From assembly GCA_963770835.1 (NCBI GenBank), contig CAVYRH010000005.1, positions 327,794 to 391,793 on the forward strand: a DNA stretch of 64,000 bases, written 5' to 3'. The stretch is from an uncultured Pseudomonadota bacterium. Its GTDB lineage: Bacteria; Oederibacteriota; Muellerivitia; Muellerivitales; Muellerivitaceae. How positions within the stretch are numbered: the first letter of the stretch is position 1; each line of letters begins with the position of its first letter. Positions 6,874 to 26,782 of the stretch are shown piece after piece. The notes under the pieces were generated by a model. It did not search any database. It had not been told where the DNA came from and saw only the letters and a program-made list of their open reading frames with translations. Made by a program: the position numbers and the translations under genes.

Positions 6874-6899
6874 ACCATTTTGAATAAAGGCATAGCAGG

Positions 6900-7772: not shown

Positions 7773-8887
7773 AAAAGCTTTTAAACCAGTCGCCCCTCAA
7801 AGACATCTATGAGAAAGTTGAAAAAAGCATCCGAATCACGGATGAGGATGCCCTCCGTCTTTACCAGACCAACGATCTTTATATTTTGGGAGCCATAGCC
7901 AACCTGGTTCGGGAAAGAAAAAACGGGAACGACACTTACTACAACATCAACCGGCATATCGACTACACCAACGTCTGCGCCACCACCTGCAAGTTCTGCG
8001 CTTTTTCCAGGTTTGAGGGGGAAGAAGGCGCCTTTGAGTTTACCCACCAGCAGATCGCCCAAAAAGCCAAGGAAGCCTTCGAAAAGGAACATATTACGGA
8101 GCTGCACATCGTCGGAGGCCTCCACCCGACTTATGATTTCGAGTGGTACGAGGACATGCTACGGCTCTTGAAGAAAACCGTGCCCAGTGTGCACCTGAAG
8201 TGCTTCACGGCCGTGGAAATCAACTTCTTCGCCGACAAGTACAATCTGTCCTACGGGGAAGTGTTGAGCCGGTTAAAAGCGGCGGGGTTGGATTCCATGC
8301 CCGGCGGCGGAGCCGAGATTTTCCACCCAGAGGTAAGGGAGCAGATCTGCCCCGGCAAGGCTACGGCGGACCAATGGATTGAAGTACACCGCACCGCCCA
8401 CGGTCTGGGGTTCAAGACCAACGCCACCATGCTTTACGGCCATATCGAGAAATACGAGCACCGGGTGGACCATATGCGGCGCTTGAGGGAACTGCAGGAC
8501 GAGACCGGCGGCTTCCAAACTTTTATCCCCCTGGCCTTTCACCCCGACCACACGGCCATGGACCATTTCGCCCGGCCCTCTGGCATGGAAGACCTGAAAA
8601 CCCTGGCCGTTGCCCGGGTTTACCTGGACAATTTTCCCCATATCAAGGCCTATTGGATCATGTTGGGCGTGAAGCTGTCCCAGCTTTCCCTTTCCTACGG
8701 CGTGGACGACATCGATGGAACGGTGATCGAAGAAAAAATTTATCATATGGCCGGAGCGGATACCCCGGAGATCATGACGGTGGGGGACCTGCGGCGCCTG
8801 ATCCGGGAAGCGGGCCGCACACCCGTGGAACGGGACACGTTGTACAAGGAACTTAAAACCATTCAGGAACCGGCACTCTCGAAGTAA
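7763..8887 (+). CDS. Radical SAM enzyme of the MqnC/MqnE family (aminofutalosine synthase or cyclic dehypoxanthinyl-futalosine synthase)
   Basis: NYTNVCATTCKFCAF (CxxxCxxC), LKDIYEKV...DALRLY N-terminus, and GGGAEIF. The likely start is TTG at 7763 behind AGGAG; the ORF is open from GTG 7721. Confidence 0.75.
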   Translation: MVLKKLLNQSPLKDIYEKVEKSIRITDEDALRLYQTNDLYILGAIANLVRERKNGNDTYYNINRHIDYTNVCATTCKFCAFSRFEGEEGAFEFTHQQIAQKAKEAFEKEHITELHIVGGLHPTYDFEWYEDMLRLLKKTVPSVHLKCFTAVEINFFADKYNLSYGEVLSRLKAAGLDSMPGGGAEIFHPEVREQICPGKATADQWIEVHRTAHGLGFKTNATMLYGHIEKYEHRVDHMRRLRELQDETGGFQTFIPLAFHPDHTAMDHFARPSGMEDLKTLAVARVYLDNFPHIKAYWIMLGVKLSQLSLSYGVDDIDGTVIEEKIYHMAGADTPEIMTVGDLRRLIREAGRTPVERDTLYKELKTIQEPALSK

Positions 8888-8911
8888 ATTTCAAGTTAAA
8901 GAGGATATGGA

Positions 8912-9832
8912 ATGAGCGATACCACTGCCGATACCCCAGCTGCCGCGCCTGCCCCGGCGCCAAAACCGGCGGTGACGCCCGCACCTGTGGCGACAGCAAC
9001 TCCCGCTGCGGCTCCCGCAGCCACTGCCACTGCGGCTCCGCCAACGGCTGCACAGCCGGTTAAATTCATTGCGAAGCCCATGAATATCGGCGTCATACCC
9101 TTCCTCAACGTCCAGCCACTGATCTGGGATATGAAAAACCACCATCATTTATTTCCCGTTCCCCCCAGCCAAATGGGCGCCTTGCTCAAAAAAGGCCAAC
9201 TGGATGTGGCCATTGCTCCCGTCGTGGTGAAATTCCTGAATCCGGAGCTCCAGATTGTTCCGGTGGCGGCCATCGGCTGCAAGGGGCCGGTCAAAAGTGT
9301 CCGCCTACTGTCCCACGTTCCATTAGATCAAGTGACCCGGCTTTTCGCCGATTCGCGTTCCCAAACTTCGGTCCTTTTGACCCGTTTGATCCTGAAAAAA
9401 TGGTATGGGGTCAAGAAACTGGAGGTGAAGCACGTGGAGACGGAAAGCTTTAAGCCCAACCAAACCAAGCCCTGGGAAGCATCCCTGCAGATTGGGGACA
9501 TTGCTTTGGAATCAGCCCCTTCCGGCATGAACGTTTTGGACCTGGGCGAGGAATGGTTCCTTCGTACCCAAAAACCCTTCGTCTTCGCCGTCTGGATGGC
9601 CCGTAACGTACAGGTTGCCCGTGAGATCGAAATGGACCTTTTGGCCGCCAAGACCGAGGGTCTCAAGCATATTCTGGAGATCGTCGATGGTTACCATGGC
9701 ATCTGGGTTTTCCACCGGCCCCAAGCCAAGGAATACCTGGAAAAGAACATCGATTTCACCTATACCGCTAAAGAGGTCCAAGGCCAGTTGGAATTCGAGA
9801 AACTGCTGAAAGAAGAAGGTTTAATCCTTTAA
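8912..9832 (+). CDS. MqnA/MqnD-family menaquinone (futalosine pathway) protein with an N-terminal Pro/Ala/Thr-rich extension
   Basis: IGVIPFLNVQPLIW...LDVAIAPVV...VKSVRLL matches the MqnA/MqnD (periplasmic-binding-protein-like) family. The first ~55 aa are low-complexity (PAAAPAPAPKPAVTPAPVATATPAAAP). A strong RBS (AAAGAGGA) precedes the ATG at 8912. Confidence 0.7.
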   Translation: MSDTTADTPAAAPAPAPKPAVTPAPVATATPAAAPAATATAAPPTAAQPVKFIAKPMNIGVIPFLNVQPLIWDMKNHHHLFPVPPSQMGALLKKGQLDVAIAPVVVKFLNPELQIVPVAAIGCKGPVKSVRLLSHVPLDQVTRLFADSRSQTSVLLTRLILKKWYGVKKLEVKHVETESFKPNQTKPWEASLQIGDIALESAPSGMNVLDLGEEWFLRTQKPFVFAVWMARNVQVAREIEMDLLAAKTEGLKHILEIVDGYHGIWVFHRPQAKEYLEKNIDFTYTAKEVQGQLEFEKLLKEEGLIL

Positions 9833-9849
9833 TACCGAGGAAACGTTGA

Positions 9850-10926
9850 ATGTCCCTAGCCACCGTTGAAATGCTGCAAGAGAGGGTTTTAGACGGCCAC
9901 GTGGTGGACCGCCAGGAAGCGCTGGAGTTGTTCCAGGGTTCCAGCTTGAACGAACTGGGGGCCATCGCCGACACCCTGAAGGTCCGTTCCAAGGGCGACA
10001 AGATCGCCACCTACCTCATCGACCGCAACATCAATTACACCAATGTCTGCGTGACCTATTGCAAGTTCTGCGCCTTCTACCGAGAGCCCGGCGACACGAA
10101 GGAAGGCTACGTCAACGAGGCGGATAAGATCATCCACAAGATCGCGGAAGCCAAGGAAAAGGGCTGCACGCAGATTTTGCTGCAGGGCGGCCACCACCCG
10201 GATTTGACGCTGGACTGGTACTTGAGCATGCTGTCGAAGGTCAAAAAGGCCCATCCGGATATCACCCTACATTCTTTCTCCCCCCCGGAACTGGTGCATT
10301 TCTCCGGTCTTTTCGGGATGACAGTTATCGAAATTCTTAAGAAATTCAAGGAAGCGGGCATGGACTCCATGCCGGGCGGCGGGGCCGAGATATTAGTGGA
10401 CCGGGTGCGCAAGGAAATCGCGCCCCTGAAGGCTTCCACCGAGGAATGGCTGGGCGTCATGCGCGACGTGCATTCCCTGGGCATGCGTTCCACGGCCACA
10501 ATGATGTTCGGCCACGTGGAAACCATCGAGGACCGTATTGAACACATTTTTCATATACGGGAACTTCAAGAGGAAACGGGCGGATTCCTGGGTTTCATCC
10601 CCTGGCTTTACCAGCCGGGCAACGAAAGCCTGGGGCTAAAAAGCGCCAGCGGTCAAGAATACCTGAAGACCCTGGCCCTTTCCCGCGTCATCCTCAACCA
10701 TTGCCTGCCCAACCTGCAGGCTTCCTGGGTCACGCCTGGCAAAAAGATCGGCCAAATCGGCCTCAAGTACGGGGCCAACGACCTGGGCAGCATCATGCTG
10801 GAAGAAAACGTAGTGGCTTCTACGGGCCTCAAATACCTGATGAGTCTGGAGGAAATGCGGCGCCTGATCAAGGAAATGGGTTATGAGCCCCATCAGCGCG
10901 ATACTTTTTATAACCTGGTCAATTGA
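9850..10926 (+). CDS. Radical SAM enzyme of the MqnC/MqnE family (paralog of 7763..8887)
   Basis: NYTNVCVTYCKFCAF, GGAEIL, and the same domain order as the first paralog. Confidence 0.75.
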   Translation: MSLATVEMLQERVLDGHVVDRQEALELFQGSSLNELGAIADTLKVRSKGDKIATYLIDRNINYTNVCVTYCKFCAFYREPGDTKEGYVNEADKIIHKIAEAKEKGCTQILLQGGHHPDLTLDWYLSMLSKVKKAHPDITLHSFSPPELVHFSGLFGMTVIEILKKFKEAGMDSMPGGGAEILVDRVRKEIAPLKASTEEWLGVMRDVHSLGMRSTATMMFGHVETIEDRIEHIFHIRELQEETGGFLGFIPWLYQPGNESLGLKSASGQEYLKTLALSRVILNHCLPNLQASWVTPGKKIGQIGLKYGANDLGSIMLEENVVASTGLKYLMSLEEMRRLIKEMGYEPHQRDTFYNLVN

Positions 10927-10951
10927 CGGAATTCCCAAGAAAGAAAAATTA

Positions 10952-11344
10952 ATGAAGGAATATAACGAGAGCCACGCCAAGTCGGGGCTCAACATAAAGC
11001 TTCCCAGTATTGAGACCTTTCCCAACCAGTTTCCGGCTTATACTATCCGTATCGAAATTCCCGAATATACGGCGGTTTGCCCCAAGACCGGCCTGCCGGA
11101 TTTCGGCACCATCATCTTGGAATATGAACCGGTGAAGAATGTTTTGGAATTGAAATCCCTGAAGGGCTATATCCTGGCTTACCGGAACATCGGCATTTTT
11201 TACGAGAACGCCGTCAACCGAATGCTGCGGGATTTCGTGGCCGCCGCCAAGCCCAAATGGTGCCGGGTGACGGGGCAATTCGCCACCCGAGGTGGTATGC
11301 ATTCCACTATCTCAGTCCTTTACGGGAAACCGGTCAAGCGCTAA
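10952..11344 (+). CDS. queF: NADPH-dependent 7-cyano-7-deazaguanine reductase QueF (type I)
   Basis: EYTAVCPKTGLPDFGTIILEY matches the QueF E(F/Y)TxxCPxTGxPDF motif. Length is ~130 aa from MKEYNES with an AAGAAAGAAAA upstream; the ORF is open from 10883. Confidence 0.85.
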   Translation: MKEYNESHAKSGLNIKLPSIETFPNQFPAYTIRIEIPEYTAVCPKTGLPDFGTIILEYEPVKNVLELKSLKGYILAYRNIGIFYENAVNRMLRDFVAAAKPKWCRVTGQFATRGGMHSTISVLYGKPVKR

Positions 11345-11560
11345 CGTTTTTGGCGGTCTTTTGGGCCCTTTAAGCCTTGGATTAAATCGGATGAAAACCG
11401 TCTATAAGCCGAAGACCAACACTCCCTATTTAATTCCTGAAATGGTTCGCTCGAAAATCCGAAGGGGTGTATGATCTTTCCCATAGACCGGAAAAGGCTG
11501 ACTTGTACAATTGGCTGAAAACGTTTTTTGCCAATTTTTTGATGGTGGGAGTTTATTGAG

Positions 11561-11977
11561 ATGAAAAATTCCAAAATCCTTCTTCTGATCGGTATAGCCG
11601 TCCTGGCTCCCGCTTTTCTGTGGGCGGGGTCCACCATTACCCCTGAAAACGACTATCGCAAAGGGCTCGACCTTTACGCCAAGGGTAAGTATGAGGCGGC
11701 ATTGGAACGCTTCCAATTGGCCATCGATGAAAATTGGAACTTCTGGCAGTCCTATCAAATGGTGGGTTATTGCTATTTTGAACTGAGGGATAAAGAAAGT
11801 GCTCTCAATGCCTTCGAAGAAAGCCTCAAAATCAAGCCCGACAATCCCAAATTGGTGAAGATCATCAACGATTTAAAAGCCGGAACCCTCGATATCCCCG
11901 TCCGGCCCGTGGAAGCTGAGGTCCAGCCTGTCGGGACCCCGGTTTATCTCCAGACGTATTACACCTATAACAAATAG
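11561..11977 (+). CDS. Secreted TPR-repeat protein
   Basis: Signal peptide MKNSKILLLIGIAVLAPAFLWAG, then two TPR-like units (YRKGLDLYAKGKYEAALERFQLAI..., YQMVGYCYFELRDKESALNAFEESLKIKP). Confidence 0.55.
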   Translation: MKNSKILLLIGIAVLAPAFLWAGSTITPENDYRKGLDLYAKGKYEAALERFQLAIDENWNFWQSYQMVGYCYFELRDKESALNAFEESLKIKPDNPKLVKIINDLKAGTLDIPVRPVEAEVQPVGTPVYLQTYYTYNK

Positions 11978-12023
11978 TTTCCGCCCTTCCAAACCCCCTT
12001 TGGAATTTTCCCGTTTCGGCTAT

Positions 12024-12029
12024 AATTCC
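12024..12029 (+). promoter_or_regulatory. Candidate -10 element (TATAAT) with upstream TTGGAA, ahead of the speE-like gene
   Basis: ttggaattttcccgtttcggcTATAATtcc at 11999-12032. A strong RBS AAGGAGAA lies 7 nt before ATG 12064. Confidence 0.3.
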
Positions 12030-12063
12030 CCCATTCTTGAACTCCCCGTAAGGAGAACACTCC

Positions 12064-12963
12064 ATGGCCACTAAAACCGAATGGACCACCGACAGCTTTG
12101 GGCATGTTTACAAAGGCCACTCCCTTTACAAAGGAAGGACTCCCTTCCAGTCCATGGAGATTTTCGAGGACAAGACGTTCGGAACCCTGCTCTTTCTGGA
12201 CGGTAAAATCCAAATCTCCGACGGGGATGAAAACCGTTACCATCAGTACCTGGTGTCGGCTCCGCTTTTGGCCCACCGGAACCCCCAAAGCATCTGCATC
12301 ATCGGTGGCGGGGACTGTTTCGCGATCGAGGAAGCCGCCAAGTTCAAGAGCCTGAAACGCATTCTGATGGTGGAGATCGACAAGGGAGTTGTGGATTTCT
12401 GCCGGAAGAATTATCCGGAAATCGGAAGATGCCTGAGGGATGAGCGGGTGGAGATCATCTACAAGGATGCCCGCAGATGGTTGCAAGACCATCCCGAAAC
12501 CTTCGACGTGCTCATCATCGACTTAACCGAGCCCCATGGGCCTTCCAAGATGCTTTACACCCAAGAATTCTACCGGCTTTGCAAGAAACGGATGAACCCC
12601 CAGGGACTCATCGCCATTCACACGGACAACTATTATTTGTTTCCCGATTCTTTTGCCACCATCTATAAGACCTTCCGTTCCGTGTTCCCGAACATTCTGA
12701 CCGCTCGGGTGGACATGCCTTGCTTCGGCATGGGCTGGACCTATCGCATCGCCTCCTCTTCGCCCATTTCGGTGAAACTGATGGAAACCAATATCAAGAA
12801 GCTGAAGAAGCAGGGAATCACCTTTGATTATTTCACACCTTCGACCTACTTGGTCCAGCCGACCAGTGAGGAATTAAAAAACCTTAAGACCCGGGGCCGT
12901 ATTTCAACGGACAAGAAGCCCTTCGATAAGTTCGAGAAGATGGAAAAATACGTAACGAAGTGA
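12064..12963 (+). CDS. speE: Spermidine synthase-like polyamine aminopropyltransferase
   Basis: ICIIGGGDCFAIEE (the SpeE GGGDG-type motif), LIIDLTEP, and ~300 aa length. Confidence 0.7.
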   Translation: MATKTEWTTDSFGHVYKGHSLYKGRTPFQSMEIFEDKTFGTLLFLDGKIQISDGDENRYHQYLVSAPLLAHRNPQSICIIGGGDCFAIEEAAKFKSLKRILMVEIDKGVVDFCRKNYPEIGRCLRDERVEIIYKDARRWLQDHPETFDVLIIDLTEPHGPSKMLYTQEFYRLCKKRMNPQGLIAIHTDNYYLFPDSFATIYKTFRSVFPNILTARVDMPCFGMGWTYRIASSSPISVKLMETNIKKLKKQGITFDYFTPSTYLVQPTSEELKNLKTRGRISTDKKPFDKFEKMEKYVTK

Positions 12964-13038
12964 ATCCGGAAATATCAAATATCCGTTTCGGAAATTATTT
13001 TTCCTTTATTGAAAAAACTCTAATTGTGGGGGAATGGG

Positions 13039-13479
13039 ATGGATACCATCGGAAGCCTTGTTGACAAATTGTCGATTTTGGAAATCAGGAAGGACCATAC
13101 AAAGGATTCTGATTCGATAAGGGTATTAAATGAATCAGCCGAACGGCTAAAAAACGAGATTAATGAAATTATTTTAAAGATACTTAAAGGCGAAATTTGT
13201 GATGAATGGACGATTAAACAGCCTAAACTTAAAAATTATGCCCACCAAGACAATAACATGGAAAAGTCCGAAGGTTTGGCAAAAGTAATACAGAATCTTA
13301 TCGTGGCCAACATACAGCTATGGAATATTGAGGATACAAGACGAAACAAAAGTTTGGCCGATAATGTCAGGCTTGGAGCGGCCGACCAAGTATCCGTGTG
13401 GAATAAAAAACGCAATGACGCAATGGATAATATTGACAAAGAAATATGGCTATTGGTGGTTGCCAAAAAAGGTAAATGA
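13039..13479 (+). CDS. Hypothetical protein encoded by an AT-rich gene next to the IS
   Basis: 147-aa ORF from MDTIGSLVDKLSILEIRK..., hydrophilic and Lys/Glu/Asn-rich. The gene and its flanks (12960-13560) are markedly AT-richer than the window average. Confidence 0.4.
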   Translation: MDTIGSLVDKLSILEIRKDHTKDSDSIRVLNESAERLKNEINEIILKILKGEICDEWTIKQPKLKNYAHQDNNMEKSEGLAKVIQNLIVANIQLWNIEDTRRNKSLADNVRLGAADQVSVWNKKRNDAMDNIDKEIWLLVVAKKGK

Positions 13480-13562
13480 TCCTGAAGCCGCCGAATCGGC
13501 AGTTGACCCAAGGGCGTATTGCTATCCCCCATCCAGCCAATCACCAGATGGGGCATTACAAT

Positions 13563-13583
13563 TTGTAACCTCTGAAAAACTCC
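13563..13583. repeat. Left terminal inverted repeat of the IS
   Basis: ttgtaacctctgaaaaactcc is the reverse complement of 16658-16678. Confidence 0.7.
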
Positions 13584-13727
13584 CTGTTTTGGTTTGAAAC
13601 TCTTCTCACCAGGGTTTTCAACCCCGCTTGGAGATGTTTTTGTTTCTCCAAAGGTGTTGCACTTACTCCTAGAACTCCTTTTTCGACCCTTCTTGCGTCA
13701 TCTGCCTCTGAAAAAACTCCCCTTAGC

Positions 13728-14388
13728 TCAGGCCGCCGCCAACTTTACGGCTCTTTTCCCATTAAATGCGATGCCACAGATCAACACCCAAATCTTGTTT
13801 CGGGCCATCCCGTAGTACCTCATTCGTCCCATCGAACACCACCGCTTCAAGGTACTCATTGTCGCCTCGATCCCGCACCTCACACGGCCCCAAACCTTGT
13901 TTTGCTTTAATTGCCTCTGGGTCAGCTTCTGTCCCCGCCAAACACGATGTAACACTCGATTCCGAATCCCTCGTTCCTCCAAATATTCATCGTGTTGCGC
14001 CGACCGGTAAGCCTTGTCAGCAAATGCCTGTTCTACCCCGCGAGGAACCATGTCTTTGAAATGTTCGTGATCGTGTTCCTCAATATGACTTAGATCCATC
14101 TTTCGAATCAGGCCGCTTTTCTCGTCCTGACCCACATGAACCTTCATCCCATCCACGGCTTTTCCTTGCCGGGAGGTGTAATGAACATCTTCATCCACCG
14201 GCTTTCCCTCTTGATCCTTGGATTCCGGTTTACAGGCTCCTTCCACCAGGGTGGAGTCCACAATGGCCCCTTTCTTGACCAAAAGGCCCTTCCGGTCCAA
14301 ACCCTGTTGCACTGCCCCCCAAACCCGGTCTATCAAACCGGCTTCCCGAAGTCTTTCCCGAAACTTCACCAAAGTGGTGTCGTCGACG
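13728..14388 (-). pseudogene. IS5-family DDE transposase, C-terminal ~220 codons (downstream half of a gene split by the antisense group II intron)
   Basis: VDDTTLVKFRERLREAGLIDRVWGAVQQG..., DSTLVEGA..., AFADKAYRSAQHDE..., GIEATMSTLKRW are IS5/IS4-type DDE motifs. The ORF-track N-terminal extension to 15008 is read-through into intron sequence and is not real. Confidence 0.75.
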
Positions 14389-14901
14389 GTGCGTCCAGAA
14401 AAGGCAGGTGTGTTCAGCAAGAGATAGTCTTGCATGGGTAATAGCCAAAGCCCATTAGCTAGGATGGCAGGCAAGCGGGAAACCAAATGCCTGAAGCCCA
14501 TCAACAAAGCCATCGAAAGGATGGTGAGCGAGTCGTCGGGCCGTAACGAAAGTAAATGCACAGGTGGCCCCGAAAACACTTGCCTCGGAGGCTGAGTCCG
14601 CCGTCGTGGGACGAAAGCATCATGGGACAGCGCGGAGAAATGGCTGAAGCGCTGGAACACTCCGACGGGGTGATAGCAACGGCACGAAGACAAGGACACG
14701 CCAAGCAACTGGAGAAACCCTCCTTGCCCCAGGCAGAAATGCTTGGAGAAAGGTAGGCCGTATAACCGTGACGCGGGAAAACGGTCGAAGGTGAGAGGGT
14801 TTAGGATGGGTTCATGGTAGCGATGAAGCGGGGTAATGCCCGTGGAGCGAAGGAACCCTGCTGTTGTTAAGTCCCTCGACAAAACGGAAGGCAGTGACGG
14901 T

Positions 14902-16203
14902 ATGAAAAAGACGTCAATTAACCTGCAAGACCTGAGACGAGAGATATACGTCAAAGCGAAGGCTGAAAAGAACTGGAGTTTCTGGGGACTGTACACCCAT
15001 GTTTGCAAGATGGAAACGCTTCAACAGGCTTACCGAATGGCTAAGGTAAATAACGGAGCCCCTGGAATAGATGGGGTGACGTTTGATGCCATTGAGGAGG
15101 CCGGAGTGGAGTCGTTTCTGGAAAGCATCCGGGGTGAATTAGTTCAAGGCACGTATAAGCCCGTTCGAAACCGGAAGAAGGAAATACCCAAGGGAAATGG
15201 GAAGGTAAGAGTCCTTGGGATACCCAACATTCGGGATAGAGTAGTCCAGGGAGCACTGAAGTTTATTCTGGAACCGATTTTTGAGGCCGATTTTCAAGAA
15301 GGGTCCTATGGGTATCGACCCAAGCGGACCGCTCATGCGGCTGTGAACAGGGTAGCATCGGCAATCGTCTGTAGAAAAACCCGAGTCATTGATGTAGACC
15401 TCAAGGCATATTTCGACACGGTAAGGCACGACCTTCTGATGAAGAAAGTTGCCCGAAGGGTTGAGGATGAAACGGTGTTGAGATTGTTGAGGATGATCCT
15501 GAAGGCCAGCGGCAAAAGAGGAGTCCCGCAGGGAGGGGTTATTTCCCCTCTTCTGGCTAATCTCTACCTCAACGAGGTGGATAAGATGCTGGAAAAGGCA
15601 AAAGAAGTGACTCGGCAAGGGAAGAACAACTATATCGAATATGCGAGGTTCGCTGACGATATGGTGATCCTTGTTAATGGATATCCGCAATGGGAATGGT
15701 TGGCAAAGGCTGCCTACCGAAGGTTACTTGAAGAATTGACCAAGCTCGACTTGCAAATCAACACGGACAAGACGCGGATAGCAGACTTAACGAAAGGTGA
15801 AAGTTTCGGGTTTCTGGGGTTTGACTTTCGACAGGTGAAAACCCGTCGAGGGAAATGGGGGGTGAAGTTCACGCCGAAAATGAAGGCGCGAGCAACACTT
15901 CTGGGTAAGCTCAAGGAAACATTTGGAAGCTTCCAATCTCAGCCGGTGCAGAGGGTGATTGAGATTATCAATCCCAAACTGCGTGGGTGGGTGAATTACT
16001 TTCGGATAGGGAATTCTAGGCGCTGTTTTAACTACGTGGAAAGATGGGTCGAGAATAAAATCAGACGGCATATGATGCGTGCGAAGAAGCTCGACGGTTT
16101 TGGGCGGGATAGGTGGAGTAGGGAGTGGATATATAAGTATCTGGGGTTGTACAGAAGCTACCAAATACGATATTACCAAGAACCGAAAGCGCTACCCGTC
16201 TGA
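14902..16203 (+). CDS. Group II intron-encoded reverse transcriptase / maturase
   Basis: NNGAPGIDGVTFDAIEE (RT0/1), PKGNGKVRVLGIPNIRDRVVQGAL (RT2), RFADDMVILV (the YADD-type RT5 motif) and a C-terminal maturase X domain (RGWVNYFRIGNSRR). No HNH endonuclease domain. The ORF is open from 14836. Confidence 0.85.
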   Translation: MKKTSINLQDLRREIYVKAKAEKNWSFWGLYTHVCKMETLQQAYRMAKVNNGAPGIDGVTFDAIEEAGVESFLESIRGELVQGTYKPVRNRKKEIPKGNGKVRVLGIPNIRDRVVQGALKFILEPIFEADFQEGSYGYRPKRTAHAAVNRVASAIVCRKTRVIDVDLKAYFDTVRHDLLMKKVARRVEDETVLRLLRMILKASGKRGVPQGGVISPLLANLYLNEVDKMLEKAKEVTRQGKNNYIEYARFADDMVILVNGYPQWEWLAKAAYRRLLEELTKLDLQINTDKTRIADLTKGESFGFLGFDFRQVKTRRGKWGVKFTPKMKARATLLGKLKETFGSFQSQPVQRVIEIINPKLRGWVNYFRIGNSRRCFNYVERWVENKIRRHMMRAKKLDGFGRDRWSREWIYKYLGLYRSYQIRYYQEPKALPV

Positions 16204-16237
16204 TAGGTCACATAAACTTTGACAGGAAAGCAACAGG

Positions 16238-16271
16238 TGAGCGTAGTGCGGGAAATCCGCACGCTACGTTC
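16238..16271 (+). ncRNA. Group II intron domain V
   Basis: GAGCGTAGTGCGGGAAATCCGCACGCTACGTTC has the AGC triad, a 2-nt bulge, a GAAA tetraloop and a G-U pair in the consensus positions. Confidence 0.7.
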
Positions 16272-16329
16272 GAGGAGGCGGGGACTGGAAACGGAGCCAG
16301 AAGGCCACCGCACCAGTCCTCGACCCTAC

Positions 16330-16607
16330 TGGTACTCCCGGACCCCTTCACCCACGAACCGCTCAAAACTGCGCCGGTCGTGGATTTCTTGGACTACTTC
16401 CACATCCGACAGGCCGTACCAGGATTCCAGCAAAAGGCATTTAAACAAGATCAAAGGCGGGATGGGAGGTCTCCCCGTGTTGCCCCGGTACATTTCCATC
16501 AGCAATTTCTCGATCTTCGGAAAGTCCAGAACCTTATCCACTTCCTCTAGCATGGTCTTTTTGAGTCGCCGGTTCTTGTCCTCGTACATCCCGAAGCTGA
16601 TTTGCAT
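16330..16607 (-). pseudogene. IS5-family transposase N-terminal ~92 codons (upstream half of the split gene)
   Basis: MYRGNTGRPPIPPLILFKCLLLESWYGLSDVEVVQEIHDRRSFERFVG is the classic IS5-family N-terminal (DUF4096-like) region. The reading frame terminates at a TAG formed by the last intron nucleotides. Confidence 0.75.
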
Positions 16608-16657
16608 GGAATCCCTCCGTCTGGAATGCTGCTATTATATTTCAGCATTTAGACGAA

Positions 16658-16678
16658 GGAGTTTTTCAGAGGTTACAA
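16658..16678. repeat. Right terminal inverted repeat of the IS
   Basis: ggagtttttcagaggttacaa. It supplies the TAA stop codon of the adjacent GT9 gene on the minus strand. Confidence 0.7.
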
Positions 16679-17971
16679 TTTATTTAATCTTTCCAGGTGC
16701 AGCTTAACATCCGCGACGATTTTCCCGACGTCCAGCGCCTCATAACATCTCACCTTTTGACAGGTCTTTGCCATCTTGTTAACGCAAGTGATATTGCGGC
16801 AGGGGCTTTCGGAAACGTAGGTTTTGGACCACACGTCCTGGTTGGCGGGAGGGAAGAGTGGATTGGTCGAATCATACCCCGACATACGGGCTGGGGTTGC
16901 GCCAAAAACCGAGATGACAAAGGTTCGGTTCCTGAATTTCACATTTCCCGTTCTGGAGTATTTGCGAGCCGCCGCAATATGCAAGGGACCGGTATCACCG
17001 GAAATGAATACATCGGCGAAATCCACTAAGGCGGCGTAAGCATCGATTGGCAGGGTAGACGGGACGACGACAACCTTCTTTTTTTCATCCGCCGACAATG
17101 TTTCCAAAAGTTTTTTTTCGACGTCCTTATGGACGAAAGCGGTTCCGAAAAGAACTATCGAATCTGTTTCCAGTATTTGTTTTAGCATGGCAGCTTGGTG
17201 CTCAAAAGGCATTAGGGTATACCGGGAGGCCGTGTCCGGGTTCATGAACACCAGGGGTTTCCCCGTGGGAACGCCGGATTCGCTTAATAAGGTCTTAGCT
17301 TTTTCGTGAGCTTCGTCGGAAAGAGTGACCGGGACGCCCGGAAAAGGCTTGTCGGGAAGGAAAGAAATCGTTTCCCTTAGGAGCTTTTCCACGAATAAGT
17401 AGGATTGGAAAAGAAAGTGGTTGATACCTGTTTGGTCGATCTCGTTTCTTACCAATTGGGGGGCGACGGTCAAGAAATTTAATATCTTCTGTCCTTGCGG
17501 GAAAAGACGATCATCCTCAAAAAAAGGCGAGCAGTTAAAGCATAGGTCGTATTGATTCTCAACCACCAACTTTTGGATGCTTTCGATGTCGTTGGGATCC
17601 GGAAAAACGCCGCCCGTGAAAACCGGGTAGAGGTTTGAAATGGCGGGGTTTCCCTCAATAAGACAGGCCACCGATTTCTTGATGACGTAATCGATACGAG
17701 CCGCAGGGAAGAAATCCCGGAAGGCTTGGACCGCGCCTTGCATCATGACCGCATCTCCGATGTGGATGTCAGGAATGACGAGGATTTTTTTGAATTGGGG
17801 AACGCCGCGAAGGTTTCTGAGGTTTTTGTGCCGGATGTGCTGGACCAAGAGCTTGTTTCCCAGGATGGGCGGGATCGTGCTGTTAAAAAACCAGGCCCCC
17901 CCCCGGGGAAACCAGGTGGTCAAAAGGCTCGTCCAATGGAAAATGGTTTTTTGTAATTTGTTGTCGAGCAT
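16673..17971 (-). CDS. Glycosyltransferase family 9 (ADP-heptose:LPS heptosyltransferase-like)
   Basis: GTAFVHKD..., ADVFISGDTGPLHIAAA (the GT9 C-terminal nucleotide-sugar motif), and ~430 aa length. A Cys-rich C-terminal tail CRNITCVNKMAKTCQKVRC follows. The last codons and the stop lie in the TSD / IS end. Confidence 0.75.
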   Translation of the reverse strand: MLDNKLQKTIFHWTSLLTTWFPRGGAWFFNSTIPPILGNKLLVQHIRHKNLRNLRGVPQFKKILVIPDIHIGDAVMMQGAVQAFRDFFPAARIDYVIKKSVACLIEGNPAISNLYPVFTGGVFPDPNDIESIQKLVVENQYDLCFNCSPFFEDDRLFPQGQKILNFLTVAPQLVRNEIDQTGINHFLFQSYLFVEKLLRETISFLPDKPFPGVPVTLSDEAHEKAKTLLSESGVPTGKPLVFMNPDTASRYTLMPFEHQAAMLKQILETDSIVLFGTAFVHKDVEKKLLETLSADEKKKVVVVPSTLPIDAYAALVDFADVFISGDTGPLHIAAARKYSRTGNVKFRNRTFVISVFGATPARMSGYDSTNPLFPPANQDVWSKTYVSESPCRNITCVNKMAKTCQKVRCYEALDVGKIVADVKLHLERLNKL

Positions 17972-18081: not shown

Positions 18082-19386
18082 ATGAGTCAGCGTCTCGTTC
18101 TTTTTTCCAAATACATCCTCACGATGGACCGGCCCCAGCCCATTGAGGATGGCTTTGTCCTGATCCAGGGCTCTCGCATCCTCCAAGTGGGAAAACGGAA
18201 GGACCTTTTTTTTCTCCCCTCGGTACGCATGCTGGACCTGGGCGACACGATCCTCCTACCCGGGTTCATCAACGCTCATTGCCATTTGGATTTCACTGGT
18301 TTCAAGGGTCGTGTGCGCTACCAGGGCGGCTTCCGGGAATGGCTGCGAAAAATGGCGGTCAAGTCCCGGGAAACAAGCCCCGCCGAATTCCGGCGGTCGA
18401 TCCAAAAGGGAATCAAGGAAAGCCTGGATTACGGCACGACCACGATTTGCGATGTGGCCACCAGTTGGGAAAGCTATCCTCTGCTTCGCCAATCCGGATT
18501 GCGGGCCTTTGTTTTCCTTGAAATGATCGACCTGGGACAATCCTCCACACCAGCTTATTGCCGGCAATTCCAGGAGAAATTGCGGGCCATCACGCACACG
18601 GCGCCGCCCACCCCCACTTTTCGCTGGGGCCTGAGCCCCCATACGCCTTTTACCGCCTCGAAGGAGTTACTGGAGTGGACAGGAAAATACCTGAACGATC
18701 ACCGGGACGTTCCCACCACCATCCATGTAGGTGAAAGCCGTGAGGAAGGGAATTACTTCAAAAAGGGGTCAGGCCCCATGGCCGACCGGATCCGGGTCCT
18801 AAACCCGGATTGGAATATTCCCCGGCGCACTACGCCCGTTCAATATTTAAATGATTGCGGCTGGCTGCCGAAACTGGACCTGGGAGTCCACTTGAACGTC
18901 CTGGACCAGAGGGATATTAAACTCCTGGCCAAAAACCGCATCACTGTCGTTCATTGCCCTGGAAGCCACGGTTATTTCCATCATCCGACCTTTAAGTATC
19001 ATTCTTTGCGCCGCCACCGAATTTCAGTGTGCTTGGGGACCGACAGCCTGGCGAGCAATCGATCCCTTTCCCTATTCCGCGAAATGAGGCTTTTTAAGAA
19101 GAACCAACCTATGGTGTCTTCGGAAGAAATCCTATCCATGGTCACGGTCAAACCCGCCCAGGCCTTGGGGCTAGGACACCAGCTAGGGCGCATCAAGCCC
19201 GGTTACCTGGCAGATTTGATCGGCCTTCCCGTTCCGGCCCGGAAAAGGGCCAAGAATATAAGCCTCTTTGACCAGGTTTTGCGGTATCGGGGCACGGTTT
19301 CCTTTGCCATGGTCCAAGGGGAGCCGCGGTTAAGATTGACCGGTGGATCAACGATTCGGGGGCTTACCAGTTCTTTCCGTTCTTGA
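18082..19386 (+). CDS. Amidohydrolase-family deaminase (MTA/SAH deaminase-like; candidate aminofutalosine deaminase)
   Basis: ILLPGFINAHCHLDFT (metal-binding HxH), the later HVGES and VCLGTDSLASN motifs, and ~430 aa length. Confidence 0.65.
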   Translation: MSQRLVLFSKYILTMDRPQPIEDGFVLIQGSRILQVGKRKDLFFLPSVRMLDLGDTILLPGFINAHCHLDFTGFKGRVRYQGGFREWLRKMAVKSRETSPAEFRRSIQKGIKESLDYGTTTICDVATSWESYPLLRQSGLRAFVFLEMIDLGQSSTPAYCRQFQEKLRAITHTAPPTPTFRWGLSPHTPFTASKELLEWTGKYLNDHRDVPTTIHVGESREEGNYFKKGSGPMADRIRVLNPDWNIPRRTTPVQYLNDCGWLPKLDLGVHLNVLDQRDIKLLAKNRITVVHCPGSHGYFHHPTFKYHSLRRHRISVCLGTDSLASNRSLSLFREMRLFKKNQPMVSSEEILSMVTVKPAQALGLGHQLGRIKPGYLADLIGLPVPARKRAKNISLFDQVLRYRGTVSFAMVQGEPRLRLTGGSTIRGLTSSFRS

Positions 19387-19410
19387 CACAATGACGAAAA
19401 CCCTTATAAT
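19383..19410 (+). promoter_or_regulatory. Near-consensus sigma-70 promoter for rplM-rpsI
   Basis: TTGACA (19383-19388), a 16-nt spacer, then TATAAT (19405-19410). The RBS GAGGAAAGAG precedes the rplM ATG. Confidence 0.5.
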
Positions 19411-19469
19411 TCAGGCCCTTGTCCCTCTTTGGGACATGATGATTTGAGGAAAGAGTAGGATTGGGTTAC

Positions 19470-19928
19470 ATGCAAAAGACAATGCTCGCATCGAAAAAGG
19501 ACATCCATCGCCAATGGTGGATCGTCGACGCCAAGGACCAGGTTTTGGGAAGGCTGACTTCCCAAGTAGCCGCCATCTTGAGGGGTAAGCACAAGCGTAC
19601 CTTTACGCCGCACGTGGAAAATGGGGACCATGTGGTCATCATCAATGCCGAGAAGATCGTCCTGACCGGTAATAAATGGGAAACGAAAGCCCACCACCGC
19701 ACCTCCGGCCGACCGGGGGGCTTGTCCACCGAAGAGTATAAGCAAATCCGCCACACCCGCCCCGAGCGGATTCTAGAATACGCCATCAAGGGAATGCTGC
19801 CCAAGACCTCCCAGGGTGACAAGATGTTCGGCCGCGTCAATATCTACAAGGGTGACACTCACCCCCACTCGGCCCAAAAGCCCCAGCCGCTGACCCTGGC
19901 TCACAACGCCAAAAGAGGAGACGCTTAA
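19470..19928 (+). CDS. rplM: 50S ribosomal protein L13
   Basis: [38 protein letters not shown] and ~150 aa length. The ORF is open from 19461. Confidence 0.9.
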
Positions 19929-20323
19929 TGCCCGCCACGAAGGAACAATTCGCCGCAACCGGACGCCGTAAAACCTCCGTTGCCCGGGTCATTTTAAGGC
20001 CGGGGAAGGGGCAATTCATCGTCAACGGCAAGCCTCTCGAGAAGTTTTTTCCCGAGATGAAACTAGCCGTCGTCCGGTCCCCCCTTGAAACCGTATCGGC
20101 CCTGGGAAAATACGACGTGTTCGCAAACCTGACCGGCGGCGGGGTCACGGGGCAGGCGGAAGCCTTGCGCCACGGTATCTCCCGCGCCCTCTTAAAAATC
20201 GACGCCGAGATGCGCAAGCCCTTGAAGGCCGCTGGATTCCTGACCCGCGACCCGCGCATGGTCGAGCGTAAGAAGTACGGGCGTAAGAAGGCTCGCCGCC
20301 GCTTCCAGTTCTCGAAGCGTTAA
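19928..20323 (+). CDS. rpsI: 30S ribosomal protein S9
   Basis: [17 protein letters not shown]... and the C-terminal [16 protein letters not shown]. The start overlaps the rplM stop. Confidence 0.9.
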
Positions 20324-20344
20324 TTTCGAGGACGTTTTTCCCGA

Positions 20345-20379
20345 TCCCGCGCATCTTTCAGGATGCGCGGGATTTTTTG
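20345..20379 (+). terminator. Rho-independent terminator after rpsI
   Basis: Perfect 11-bp stem tcccgcgcatc / gatgcgcggga with loop tttcag, followed by TTTTTT. Confidence 0.75.
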
Positions 20380-20394
20380 TTTAAGAACATCGCC

Positions 20395-20841
20395 ATGGAC
20401 CAAAAAGAACATAAACCCCAAGTGACGCCCAAGATCGCGGTGAATGCCGTAATTTTTAACGGCAAGGATGAGGTTCTTTTGGCCAAGCGCACGGACAACG
20501 GCCTTTGGTGCATCCCGGGCGGGCATGTGGATTTGGGGGAGACGCTGGCCCAGGCCTGCTTGAGAGAACTTTACGAGGAAACGGGTTTGAGGGCCGAGGT
20601 GGTCCGTCTGGTGGGGATTTACTCGGACACGAAGGGCTCCCTTCATATTGCCCAGGGGGCCGAATGGCACACGGTCCGGGTTTCCTTCCTCTGCAAGGTG
20701 ACGGGCGGATCCATTCAGCCCAGCGAGGAAACCAGCGAGATCCGCTATTTCGACGTCAAGAAGTTGCCCCCGTTGATCACTGACCACGCAAGGCGTGTCC
20801 AGGACGCCTTGGAAAACAAGAGCGAAGCGGTCATCGCATAA
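20395..20841 (+). CDS. NUDIX hydrolase
   Basis: Nudix box GGHVDLGETLAQACLRELYEETGL. The ORF is open from 20377. Confidence 0.8.
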   Translation: MDQKEHKPQVTPKIAVNAVIFNGKDEVLLAKRTDNGLWCIPGGHVDLGETLAQACLRELYEETGLRAEVVRLVGIYSDTKGSLHIAQGAEWHTVRVSFLCKVTGGSIQPSEETSEIRYFDVKKLPPLITDHARRVQDALENKSEAVIA

Positions 20842-20861
20842 AACGCCCAAGGAAGGCCAAC

Positions 20862-21593
20862 ATGTCAAAGTCCAAATCCAAACCCCGCGTCGAAAGGCGG
20901 GCCATCGCCCGGCCCAAGAACGGGTTCTCCTCTCAGAACCCTTACATCGCCAACGACTTCAAGGAGCAGGATACCTGGCGGATGTTTCGCATCATGTCCG
21001 AGTTCGTGGAAGGCTTCGAGGCCCTGCGCAATATCCGTCCCGCCGTGACCATTTTCGGCTCGGCCCGCACGCTCCAAAACGCGGAGGATTTTCAATTGGC
21101 CCGCCTGATTGGCTACAGCCTTTCCAAGAAGGGCTTTTCCATCATCACCGGCGGGGGCCCGGGCATCATGGAGGCGGCCAATATGGGGGCCCATGAGGCG
21201 GGGGGACGATCGGTGGGCTGCAACATCGAACTGCCTTTCGAGCAAAAGCCCAATCCCTATATCAACCTGCCGGTGAACTTTCATTATTTCTTCATCCGCA
21301 AGGTCATGTTCCTGCGCTACACTTCGGCGGTGGTTGTGATGCCGGGCGGGTTCGGTACCATGGATGAGTTGTTCGAGACACTAACCCTGGTACAAACCCA
21401 CAAGATCGATCCCATGCCCATCATCCTGGTCGATAAAAAGTATTGGCAGGGGGGAATTGATTGGATCAAAAACACGATCCTGGGGGACCGCCATTACATC
21501 GACAAGGACGACATGAACATCTTCCATGTGGTGGACAAACCTGAGGAAGTTGTCCAAATCATCACCAAGTATTACCGCTATAAAAAACTGTAG
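20862..21593 (+). CDS. LOG-family (TIGR00730) nucleotide 5'-monophosphate nucleosidase
   Basis: ITGGGPGIMEAANMGA..., PGGFGTMDELFE and IILVD. An N-terminal Lys-rich tail is present. Confidence 0.75.
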   Translation: MSKSKSKPRVERRAIARPKNGFSSQNPYIANDFKEQDTWRMFRIMSEFVEGFEALRNIRPAVTIFGSARTLQNAEDFQLARLIGYSLSKKGFSIITGGGPGIMEAANMGAHEAGGRSVGCNIELPFEQKPNPYINLPVNFHYFFIRKVMFLRYTSAVVVMPGGFGTMDELFETLTLVQTHKIDPMPIILVDKKYWQGGIDWIKNTILGDRHYIDKDDMNIFHVVDKPEEVVQIITKYYRYKKL

Positions 21594-21603
21594 AATCCAG
21601 GTT

Positions 21604-23769
21604 ATGCGCCAATCGCTATCCGCCACCCTCCTTTTCCTGGCCTTCCTAGTCGCTGTGGTTTCTCCAGTCCGGGCTGGCATTTCGTTCATCGACCTTTCCA
21701 AGGCCGCCAACATGGGTCCGGCCCAATCCTTCGATGAGGCCGTTCCGGGTGGGGAGGACCTCAAGGAGAAGGAAGGTTTTGCCAACATTCCGCAAGGACC
21801 TCAGACCTTGCGGGGCATCCCTTTTCTAATGCTGGAAACGGACGCCAACCAGGGCAACTCCTTTATTGCCTTGTATGGACGGCGGCACGGCATTTTTCCC
21901 CAGGCGGTAGCGATTAACGTCGGGGGCATCAAGGCCAAAAACCTTTATTTCCTCCATTCCTGCCGTTGGGGGGGAACGGCCTCCAACATCGCGGTGGCCG
22001 AATACGACATTGTTTACGGGGACGGCCAAGTGGACGTCATCCCCCTGAAAGTAGGGGCGGAGCTGACGAATTTCACGGGTTCAGACGACACCCCCGAGAG
22101 TTACCTGGCCTGGTGGCACAAATACAAAAACATCGATATGGGCCTTAATTTGTTCGCATGGAAAAACCCCCAGCCGGACGTTCCCATCCAGACCATCCTC
22201 TTCAAATCTATGAACAAAGCCCCGGTGCCCATGTTGTTCGCCATCACGGCTTCGGATATGGAAATCCCTATTTCTCCCACCTCGCCGAAACCGGAAAAAA
22301 CCTTCCAGACCGACACCCGGGGCTGGTTTCCTTTCCAACCTTCGGACGCCTCCCCGGTGGGCACATCTATCGACATGAGCTTTCTCCTGGACGCGCCCGC
22401 CGGAAAGCACGGCGGTGTGACAACGGAGGGCGAGAAACTGGTTTTCGCGGACGGTACGGAGGCCCGCTTCTGGGGAACCCAGCTTTTGGGGGACTGGTGG
22501 AACCAAACGGACGAACAATTGGCCGGGACCGCCGAACGGCTGGCGGCTTATGGTTGCAACCTCGTAATGTTCGACACGCTGCCCGATGGAGCCGGGGGAC
22601 GGTTGCAGGATTTGTTGGCGGCCCTTAAACCCAGGGGAATTTACTTGGACCTGACCAGCTTGGTGAACCAAGAACTTCCGGACGGACTAGTAGCGGACCC
22701 GGCTGTTTTGAAGGATGGGGTGGATTGGACCATGACGGATGATTCTTTCAGCGCGGCCTCCCACAACCCCTCTGCCACCGGTGAGTTCCAGGACCTTCCC
22801 ACGGTTTTAATGTCCAATATGCGCAATCCGTTGTTTTTGATCCTGGGCCGCCTGTTTGGAAGTCCCTATCGGGCTGGATGGAGCGAAGACTGGCCGAACG
22901 AATATTTGGGCGAGATCCCCCCCCTGATGGCCGCTTACGGATCCTTCGATGACTGGACTGCCTGTGTTGGAATGGGAATGGGTGGGACCCATTGGGGGGG
23001 CAGCCTCTCCCCGGCAGTGTCCCTTTACGATACGCCTCAACTTTTGATCCAATGGCCCGCTGCGGCCCTGGCCTTTTTGAGAAAAGACGTCAAACAAGGG
23101 CGATTTTATGACCTGGAAAACGCCAAAGGAATGCTGGGTGACATGATCGGCGCGAATCAGGCCCCGGATATGGAAGACCTTCTGAAAGCTCTTGCCCATT
23201 GTTCCGGGGTCAACAAAAACGATCCTCGATTTAAGACCGATAGCGCGGGAACTTTAAAGGCGAAAATCAACCTCAAGCAGAAAAGCTTTGTTTCCGACAC
23301 GGGCCAGATCAGCTGGCAGGGAAACGTCGGGGTATTCCAAGTTTCCAGCCCGCGCTTTCAGGCGGCCGTTGGTTTCTTGGGGAACCGGAAACTGGTGAGC
23401 CCCGTTTGGCAAGTGGAGACCCCCAATTTCTTTGCGTCCCTATCCCTCGTTTCGCTGACCAAGACGAACCTTTGGGCTTCGGACCACATGCTTTTAACCG
23501 GGGTTACGCGCATGGAAAACACCGGCCAGGTTTATAACGCGGCCAAGACGAAATTGATTTCCCTGGGGAAGGGTCCGATCCTTGTGGAACCTTTGCAGGC
23601 CAAGATCACTCTTTTTCGTTATATGGCGGATCCCAAGCTCAGAATCCGTGCGTTGGATGCGAACGGTCAAAGCCTCCAAACAAAAGTTCACGTAAAATGG
23701 GTAAAAAACAATCTGGTCTTTTCATGGGTTCCGGGAGCCTTTTACTTGGAAATATTTAATATCAAATAA
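21604..23769 (+). CDS. Large secreted hypothetical protein (~720 aa), possibly with a glycoside-hydrolase-like core
   Basis: Signal peptide MRQSLSATLLFLAFLVAVVSPVRA. No confident family motif. The segment ARFWGTQLLGDWW...ERLAAYGCNLVMFD is vaguely TIM-barrel glycosidase-like. The ORF is open from 21526. Confidence 0.4.
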   Translation: MRQSLSATLLFLAFLVAVVSPVRAGISFIDLSKAANMGPAQSFDEAVPGGEDLKEKEGFANIPQGPQTLRGIPFLMLETDANQGNSFIALYGRRHGIFPQAVAINVGGIKAKNLYFLHSCRWGGTASNIAVAEYDIVYGDGQVDVIPLKVGAELTNFTGSDDTPESYLAWWHKYKNIDMGLNLFAWKNPQPDVPIQTILFKSMNKAPVPMLFAITASDMEIPISPTSPKPEKTFQTDTRGWFPFQPSDASPVGTSIDMSFLLDAPAGKHGGVTTEGEKLVFADGTEARFWGTQLLGDWWNQTDEQLAGTAERLAAYGCNLVMFDTLPDGAGGRLQDLLAALKPRGIYLDLTSLVNQELPDGLVADPAVLKDGVDWTMTDDSFSAASHNPSATGEFQDLPTVLMSNMRNPLFLILGRLFGSPYRAGWSEDWPNEYLGEIPPLMAAYGSFDDWTACVGMGMGGTHWGGSLSPAVSLYDTPQLLIQWPAAALAFLRKDVKQGRFYDLENAKGMLGDMIGANQAPDMEDLLKALAHCSGVNKNDPRFKTDSAGTLKAKINLKQKSFVSDTGQISWQGNVGVFQVSSPRFQAAVGFLGNRKLVSPVWQVETPNFFASLSLVSLTKTNLWASDHMLLTGVTRMENTGQVYNAAKTKLISLGKGPILVEPLQAKITLFRYMADPKLRIRALDANGQSLQTKVHVKWVKNNLVFSWVPGAFYLEIFNIK

Positions 23770-23925
23770 AAGTGAATATTGGGTCATGCTATTTATCTGG
23801 AAACGCTTGCATGTATATTTTTCATACCAAAATCAAATCGATTTAACATCCCAGTTTGATTAAGGTATCATCTGTTTACCGTTTTATCTTCAATGGAAAA
23901 CGCAGCAACCCGTCGAGGCAAAAAG

Positions 23926-24285: not shown

Positions 24286-24311
24286 CTTTTAACCTGTGTT
24301 TATAAGACAAT

Positions 24312-24352
24312 TCCGAATCCCGCTCCCCGCAAGGAGGGCGGAATTTTTTATT
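24312..24352 (+). terminator. Probable rho-independent terminator after the PilZ gene
   Basis: GC-rich imperfect hairpin cccgctcc-ccgcaa-ggagggcgg followed by ttttttattttt. Confidence 0.5.
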
Positions 24353-24381
24353 TTTACTACAAAATTTCTAAAAATTTTATT

Positions 24382-24536: not shown

Positions 24537-24560
24537 TATTTTTGATTTAATGGATTCTCA

Positions 24561-26765: not shown

Positions 26766-26782
26766 TTTCGAGGAGGGTTTGA

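Follow-up and report, generated by a model that had tools for sequence, protein, structure and literature searches.

The 64-kb stretch of DNA analysed here, referred to below as the window (contig CAVYRH010000005.1 of an uncultured Pseudomonadota bacterium, positions 327,794 to 391,793), carries on its minus strand the two parts of an insertion sequence (IS) transposase gene, and between these parts, on the plus strand, 1941 nt with the features of a group II intron. The locus raises the question of how one mobile element came to lie within the other, and what this means for the function of either. Our answer is that, very probably, an IS5-family IS inserted first and an endonuclease-less group II intron then reverse-spliced into the antisense strand of its transposase gene, at an imperfect target site. 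We base this answer on the anatomy of the locus, its exact boundaries, the homology of its parts, a comparison of target sites and the covariation between the intron and its exons. Annotations should record the locus as a single disrupted IS together with a single intact group II intron.

Anatomy and boundaries of the two elements

The IS is bounded by 20-bp terminal inverted repeats, TGTAACCTCTGAAAAACTCC at 13564-13583 (plus strand) and its perfect reverse complement at 16658-16677 (minus strand), a pair for which shuffling of the window gave 0 equivalent matches. The target-site duplication ATT stands directly outside both repeats (13561-13563 and 16678-16680). The 5' part of the transposase gene (16330-16607, minus strand) comprises codons 1-92 and two bases of the junction codon, and the 3' part (13728-14388, minus strand) contributes the third base of this codon, codons 94-312 and the stop, and encodes the DDE catalytic domain. 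Deletion of the intervening 14389-16329 yields an IS of 1173 bp with one open reading frame (ORF) of 312 aa, in which the junction codon CA|C specifies His within the peptide …GVREY-H-VDDTT…. The fusion in frame into 313 codons that the first-pass annotation of this DNA had proposed holds, counted as 312 aa plus stop, but that annotation had omitted the junction His; the residue is present in two public proteins (P0231 and P0232) that are near-identical to the window's transposase halves and read through the junction as REYHVDDTT with no interruption. The fused transposase matched the NCBIfam profile NF033581 (IS5 family transposase) with 192.9 bits (cutoff 140 bits) in a single stretch, residues 21-302 covering profile positions 3-283 of 285. 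Its Pfam domains are DUF772 (residues 45-116), within which the intron cuts, and DDE_Tnp_1 (residues 132-302), and residues 94-312 were recovered from the 3' part at 100% identity by tblastn. The motifs IVDST, ADKAY and RxxxE(x6)K, picked by eye on the pattern of the IS5 motif, are candidate catalytic residues. A DDE transposase of IS5 type, terminal inverted repeats and a short target duplication place the element in the IS5 family, and a 3-bp A/T-rich duplication would fit the ISL2/IS1031-type subgroups.

Intact relatives show the IS as it was before the intron arrived. An IS of 1174 bp on a 330-kb contig (L048), flanked by an AAT/AAT duplication, is 98.0% identical at the nucleotide level and colinear across 14388|16330. 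A further uninterrupted relative of 1173 bp, on an environmental contig (L005), is 85-92% identical and aligns 14388 and 16330 to neighbouring bases; its flanks, ACT/ACC, do not form a clean duplication. Since both intact elements are colinear across the junction, the intron boundaries are fixed to the base. Uninterrupted transposases of 312 aa with 93-95% identity were found as well (P0001-P0003). All near relatives of the IS (85-98%) come from environmental assemblies, and the closest plasmid-borne transposases are only about 31-35% identical at the protein level.

The intron occupies 14389-16329 on the plus strand, antisense to the transposase gene, and since it begins with GTGCG and ends with CTAC it agrees with the group II boundary consensus 5' GUGYG … AY 3'. 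A consensus fold of 14 related introns, covering domains I-III and the start of domain IV, contains 124 pairs, 37 of them with compensatory changes, and places domain I, including the 5' GUGCG, at 14389-14718, domain II at 14719-14799 and domain III at 14808-14858 (all plus strand). Domain I holds a match to Rfam RF02003 (group-II-D1D4-4) at 14415-14551 on the plus strand, with 121 bits against a gathering score of 49. Domain V (GAGCGUAGUGCGGGAAAUCCGCACGCUACGUUC, 16239-16271, plus strand) was found both by RF00029, the model for domains V/VI (16237-16313, 39.9 bits, E = 7.7e-06), and by minimum-energy folding; it is a GAGC…GUUC hairpin with a GAAA loop and carries the catalytic AGC triad. Domain VI (16277-16325, plus strand) has a 12-bp basal helix (16277-16288 / 16313-16325) with a bulged branch-site A at 16323, i.e. 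at position -7, 7 nt from the intron 3' end. Eight introns from three clades, including two plasmid-borne relatives, were compared: seven keep all pairs of this helix (12/12) and one keeps 11/12, and compensatory changes distinguish the clades. The Rfam alignment of domains V and VI would end the intron at 16313. This end was rejected, because it leaves a stop codon in the fused ORF, and is further excluded by the empty sites, which give 16329, and by the conserved domain VI helix with its bulged A at -7. The apparent 3' extension of 16 nt is a misalignment and not a feature of the intron.

Domain IV encodes a reverse transcriptase (RT)/maturase (14836-16203, plus strand; 455 aa from the first ATG) that matches TIGR04416 (group II intron reverse transcriptase/maturase) with 378 bits (cutoff 300) and has the FADD active-site motif at 15649-15660 on the plus strand. 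Its Pfam domains are RVT_1 and GIIM only, with no nuclease or endonuclease domain. Translation more likely starts at the ATG at 14902, downstream of domain III (433 aa), since an ORF from the first ATG overlaps domain III and homologues of 433-434 aa are numerous. Judged from its sequence, the intron keeps every recognisable functional part.

Most of the first-pass annotation, which had been made from the letters of the DNA alone, was borne out by these results, all of its coordinates included. It had described an IS5-family element with 20-bp terminal repeats and flanking ATT (13564-16677), transposase halves at 16607-16330 and 14388-13728 on the minus strand, and, in the 1941 bp between them, a complete plus-strand group II intron, and each of these is found again in the analysis, the last through RF02003, RF00029 and TIGR04416. 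Its intron end at 16329 agrees with the empty sites and the domain VI covariation, despite the Rfam alignment ending at 16313. Its RT/maturase ORF with FADD (TIGR04416, RVT_1 and GIIM), its canonical domain V (16239-16271), its domain VI with a bulged A (16323) and its 3' AC (…CTAC) were confirmed as well. The intron models match, the empty-site boundaries keep the fusion in frame, and the intact IS copies elsewhere share the terminal repeats, the length (1173/1174 bp) and the junction peptide.

The interruption also affects gene calls. On the minus strand, an ORF at 16326-16607 starts at 16607, meets a stop at 16326-16328 inside the intron and gives a 93-aa product, and a 426-aa ORF (13728-15008) consists of antisense intron sequence followed by the C-terminal part of the transposase. 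The public proteins P0011 (235 aa) and P0228 (326 aa) likewise have N-termini of antisense intron sequence and are chimeric artefacts of gene calling.

Exon recognition and the usual target of the intron

The first 20 nt of the intron were scanned in genome and metagenome collections. Introns at least 89% identical to that of the window over their first 100 nt gave 22 distinct flanks, the window excluded, and 21 of these end in TGTCCACGACG with no more than two mismatches. The flank list of 23 had also included L016, a 37-nt fragment of a different clade, which was left out of the 22, and seven hits (L006, L009, L012, L028, L030, L044 and L045) were discarded as sharing the 20-nt search pattern only and not being introns of the window type. 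The 3' exon, where available, is GGGACCCGTCGTGGACA or a variant of it. The usual target is thus a 28-nt imperfect palindrome, TGTCCACGACG|GGGACCCGTCGTGGACA (GGGACCC…GTGGACA), in which the intron inserts where the 5' arm meets the loop, at a point that does not shift by even one base among 21 distinct sites. At two of the sites (L034 and L039) the 3' exon reads GGTCCCC…, so that the insertion is into the other strand of the palindrome.

The intron recognises this target through exon-binding site 1 (EBS1), CGUCGUG at 14602-14608 (plus strand), in the loop of a hairpin at 14596-14612, which is complementary to positions -7 to -1 of the usual exon (CACGACG), the intron-binding site 1 (IBS1). Two other clades with the same 5' end have the loops ACGAAAG and AACUGAG and the 5' exons CTTTCGT and CTCGGTT, respectively. 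Over 17 sequences from the three clades, 83% of the cells of the EBS1-IBS1 helix are paired and six of its seven pairs changed on both sides; when the partner was slid by 1-3 columns, pairing of the two tested helices together fell from 88% to 32-50%. This covariation in three clades identifies EBS1.

Palindromes of the form TGTCCACGACGGGGACCC-N3-5-GTGGACA recur in L015 (for example at 4576, 5277, 10061 and 10820), L026, L027, L036, L041 and L049 (6806, 12899 and 13670). The unoccupied palindromes of the contigs that carry the intron lie directly behind co-oriented genes, often toxin-antitoxin pairs (MazF, RelE/MqsA-like) but also a five-gene operon and genes of large secreted proteins. The 5' 18 nt of the repeat are well conserved and its 3' arm is variable, and it has no T run and is therefore no obvious terminator. 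An integron attC array, an idea prompted by the toxin-antitoxin pairs, was not supported. The search looked for R''/R' core sites (RYYYAAC … GTTRRRY), a length of 55-140 nt, an adjoining integron integrase and single-gene cassettes; it found no conserved attC core boxes flanking the palindrome and no tyrosine integrase in 21 kb of L049, and some of the units between repeats are multi-gene operons of 4.8 kb, too large for cassettes. The repeat looks more like a repetitive extragenic palindromic (REP) element and may merit separate study. In L049, a different group II intron (6806-6850 and 7359-8657), whose 432-aa protein is about 38% identical to that of the window, appears to begin right after an unoccupied-looking copy of the same palindrome; if this start is true, the repeat is used by two introns in two different ways.

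All 1941 nt of the window intron are 100% identical to copies in L001 and L002, and its protein is recorded in identical form (P0093) on 10 contigs. The closest annotated relatives, on Caballeronia, Cupriavidus and Bradyrhizobium plasmids, are only 62-64% identical. The palindrome site of L027 holds a 654-nt internally deleted copy (6744-7397), and the same is true of L036 and L041. We considered this copy as an ORF-less mini-intron and rejected the idea, because in it domain I runs, through the deletion, into the middle of the protein gene; the copy is a dead remnant and not an ORF-less ribozyme. The sole intron of the window type outside a palindrome (L008, 84% identical) belongs to a metagenome-assembled genome of candidate division FCPU426, where its exons are …CCCGGTGGCGGCGC| and |GGGTTTTTT; the 5' exon does not pair with the EBS1 of L008, the site resembles a terminator stem followed by a T run, and it may be rearranged or ectopic. 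More distant relatives, about 62-68% identical, have entered another group II intron, at the 3' end of its domain V (the 5' exon of L037; L050, 1049; L051, 1056), and L025 carries two introns directly in tandem.

The site in the IS and the history of the locus

Compared with the usual target, the IS offers a partial match. The 5' exon of the window is GTGTCGTCGACG, and the site, TGTCgtCGACG|T, agrees with the usual target at -1 to -5 and at -8 to -11 (nine of 11 positions) and differs at -6, -7 and -12; the first base of the 3' exon is T, that of the usual target G. Since -6 and -7 are mismatched, only five of the seven EBS1 pairs can form, contiguous beside the insertion point, and it is for this reason that we call the site ectopic. 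The intact IS relatives have no intron at this stretch, the site being identical in L048 and, in L005, a variant one base closer to the usual target. The IS site is an imperfect target that was probably entered once, by ectopic retrotransposition into a look-alike sequence and not by homing. The first-pass annotation had suggested that other copies of the intron would define its homing site; such copies were found and did define EBS1-IBS1 pairing, but the IS itself is not the homing site. A second near-match to the usual 5' exon, ATCCACGACCGG, lies at 16373-16384 (minus strand), on the transposase sense strand in the DUF772 region; it shares TCCACGAC, has C instead of G at -1 and is unoccupied.

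That the copy is stranded in the IS, intact in sequence and unable to splice or to move from this site, is a possibility that we hold tentatively: two of the seven EBS1-IBS1 pairs are mismatched, the +1 base is non-cognate and there is no clear promoter upstream on the plus strand. On the other hand, the five pairs beside the splice site are contiguous, and read-through from the upstream plus-strand gene at 13024-13479 would be possible, no plus-strand terminator-like site having been found between this gene and the intron. Such a dead end would concern present activity only and is compatible with the insertion of an intron into an IS as proposed above.

It is considerably less probable that this intron lineage regularly uses the IS as a secondary homing site and would routinely enter the conserved stretch of the IS5-type transposase gene, in the manner in which the intron RmInt1 targets ISRm2011-2. 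Nine of 11 matching positions and the presence of the same junction in P0228, from a 412-kb contig of another assembly, could be read in this way, and group II introns are in general often found in IS elements. Yet 0 of the 22 other distinct flanks lie in an IS, the intact relatives L048 and L005 are unoccupied although their sites are as close to the usual target as that of the window or, in L005, one base closer, and the site has mismatches to EBS1 at -6 and -7 and T instead of G at +1. Least credible of all is an assembly artefact, in which the repeated intron, present in several 100% identical copies in metagenome-derived contigs and thus apt to confuse an assembler, caused unrelated contigs to be joined, since the flanks are the two halves of one IS that join to the base and in frame, the joined element has the length of its intact relatives, perfect terminal repeats and a target duplication, which a chimera would not have, and the same junction occurs in a second assembly.

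For the insertion of the intron into a resident IS we infer the following order of events. The 1173-bp IS would have landed immediately beyond the stop codon of a family-9 glycosyltransferase gene and duplicated 3 bp there. Later, a mobile endonuclease-less group II intron would have reverse-spliced into the plus strand of the IS, which is antisense to the transposase gene, where the sequence mimics part of the usual target through five contiguous EBS1-IBS1 pairs and the upstream TGTC. Endonuclease-less introns reverse-splice into transiently single-stranded DNA at replication forks, where the nascent strand serves as primer (PMC4424553, PMC6698660), and the window intron may have entered by the same route. 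The strand entered would have been set by the position of the IBS-like sequence, which happens to be antisense to the transposase gene. The Pfam-identified genes flanking the locus (7721-13479 and 18082-27490) are on the plus strand like the intron, which matches the orientation for insertion into the lagging-strand template, albeit as weak evidence.

Several observations weigh against this history or leave parts of it less secure. The RF00029 score is 0.1 bit under the Rfam gathering score of 40. No segment of the intron covaried convincingly with exon positions -8 to -13 or +1 as EBS2 or EBS3 would, so that the recognition rules are incomplete. Replication strands could not be assigned from the GC skew, which is too flat over the window. 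No convincing plus-strand promoter was found for the intron, with six promoter-like sites against 3.5 expected. Finally, P0228 reads through the same IS::intron junction on its 412-kb contig of another assembly; it may stem from the same locus or from a second copy that arose independently or by transposition. Searched for by way of its fragment proteins, the window's own IS::intron locus is on record in no other assembly.

The insertion separates the N-terminal DUF772 region from the DDE catalytic domain and leaves a 93-aa fragment and a catalytic part without a start. Since the intron is antisense, splicing cannot restore the transposase mRNA, and the IS can no longer make transposase. The first-pass annotation had concluded from this that the IS is disabled, which stands for its own transposase but not for mobilisation in trans: both terminal repeats are perfect, so the IS could in principle still be mobilised by a transposase made elsewhere. 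Between two genes of the window, at 27496-27639, lies a 144-bp miniature element whose ends, TGTAACCCTGAAAAAGGG … AGTTTTTCAGAGGTAACA, resemble the IS terminal repeats and whose flanks are GGA/GGA. It is probably a miniature inverted-repeat transposable element (MITE) from a related IS and points to past activity in trans of a matching transposase in this genome. Apart from this MITE-like element, the 64-kb window holds no further copy of the IS or of the intron, and no copy of the palindrome. As for the intron, it may still be active and could move again if transcribed from the plus strand; the 100% identity of its dispersed copies is the sole indirect hint of splicing or retromobility.

The IS neighbourhood is an ordinary housekeeping region of the chromosome, the window containing genes of the futalosine pathway to menaquinone and genes for a spermidine synthase, PcrA/UvrD and an amidase (Pfam Amidase family). 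The immediate neighbours of the IS are a DUF4254 gene on one side and, on the other, the family-9 glycosyltransferase gene (16673-17971, minus strand), whose TAA stop lies within the last five bases of the right IS repeat. The sequence TTACAATT is present at both junctions (16673-16680 and 13556-13563), since the right repeat ends in the same 5 nt that precede the left target duplication. The pre-insertion TTACAATT would have given the same stop, and the glycosyltransferase protein would have been unchanged by the insertion.

The locus provides a clean natural case in which one selfish element has inactivated another. Since the state before the event (an intact IS, 98% identical) and copies of the donor type (introns of 100% identity that occupy the usual site) are both at hand, the event can be reconstructed base by base, and the usual and the ectopic site together form a natural experiment on the degree of target match that an endonuclease-less intron requires.

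Comparison with known group II introns and IS elements

Bacterial group II introns without endonuclease comprise the classes C, D, E and F and the groups g1-g4 added later (reviews: PMC4424553, PMC3552965), and are known to depend on replication for priming. The window intron shares with them the ends 5' GUGCG…AC 3', the six domains and an RT plus maturase without the domains for DNA binding and endonuclease activity. Neither the Rfam family names nor the solved-structure search nor the literature gave a class assignment. The closest solved-structure relatives of its protein are class C reverse transcriptases (191 and 175 bits), yet its RNA has a domain I of 330 nt and an EBS1 of 7 nt. Class C introns insert just downstream of the stem-loop of a terminator or attC site, have a domain I that is reduced and use an IBS1 that is very short, and the window intron does not conform to this description, because it inserts inside a palindrome, forms an EBS1-IBS1 helix of 7 bp and has a domain I of about 330 nt.

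One may speculate that the intron represents a lineage of endonuclease-less introns that lies outside class C, has yet to be described and is specialised for DNA that forms hairpins, although we consider this doubtful. Pointing towards it are the close copies at one fixed position of a conserved 28-nt palindrome behind genes, in either strand, and the relatives of about 62-68% identity at the 3' end of another hairpin, the domain V of other introns; either kind of insertion may depend on structure. If this reading were true, the copy in the IS would be an off-target record of the minimum that the intron requires, i.e. five EBS1 pairs plus TGTC at -8 to -11, without a hairpin and without the cognate +1 base.

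Insertion at hairpins as such is familiar. The usual targets of IIC and IIC-attC introns such as B.h.I1 and S.ma.I2 are DNA hairpins behind genes, where insertion is harmless (PMC4424553, PMC1702495, PMC3001079), and a loose association with attC sites has been described for group IIB introns (PMC7923331). A palindrome behind genes is also the usual target of the window intron, but IIC introns use a very short IBS1 and insert behind the stem-loop, whereas the window intron inserts inside the palindrome with a 7-bp EBS1-IBS1 helix and in either strand. In Pseudomonas putida KT2440, two of nine group II intron copies are REP-associated (PMC1525189). These resemble the window intron in having inserted into short intergenic palindromic repeats; what was reported there is an association only, whereas in the window lineage the insertion point is constant to the base in 21 sites.

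The IS has what is typical of the IS5 family, namely a single DDE transposase (312 aa), a length of 1173 bp, 20-bp terminal inverted repeats and a short A/T-rich duplication (ATT, in its relative AAT). That group II introns reside in other mobile DNA, including IS elements, and lie outside or antisense to genes has long been recognised, and the standard example of an intron in an IS is RmInt1, which homes into ISRm2011-2, a cognate and repeatedly used site. RmInt1 of Sinorhizobium meliloti (mentioned in PMC4615759 and PMC4496777) is, like the window intron, an endonuclease-less group II intron within an IS. The two differ in that the IS is the cognate target of RmInt1, while in the window it is a one-off and imperfect target with the intron antisense to the transposase gene. 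Nested mobile elements being well known, the locus is a clean but ordinary example of them and leaves the current understanding of group II introns and IS elements unchanged; a new variant may instead lie outside the window, in the fixed insertion point within the palindrome together with the insertion of relatives at the end of domain V.

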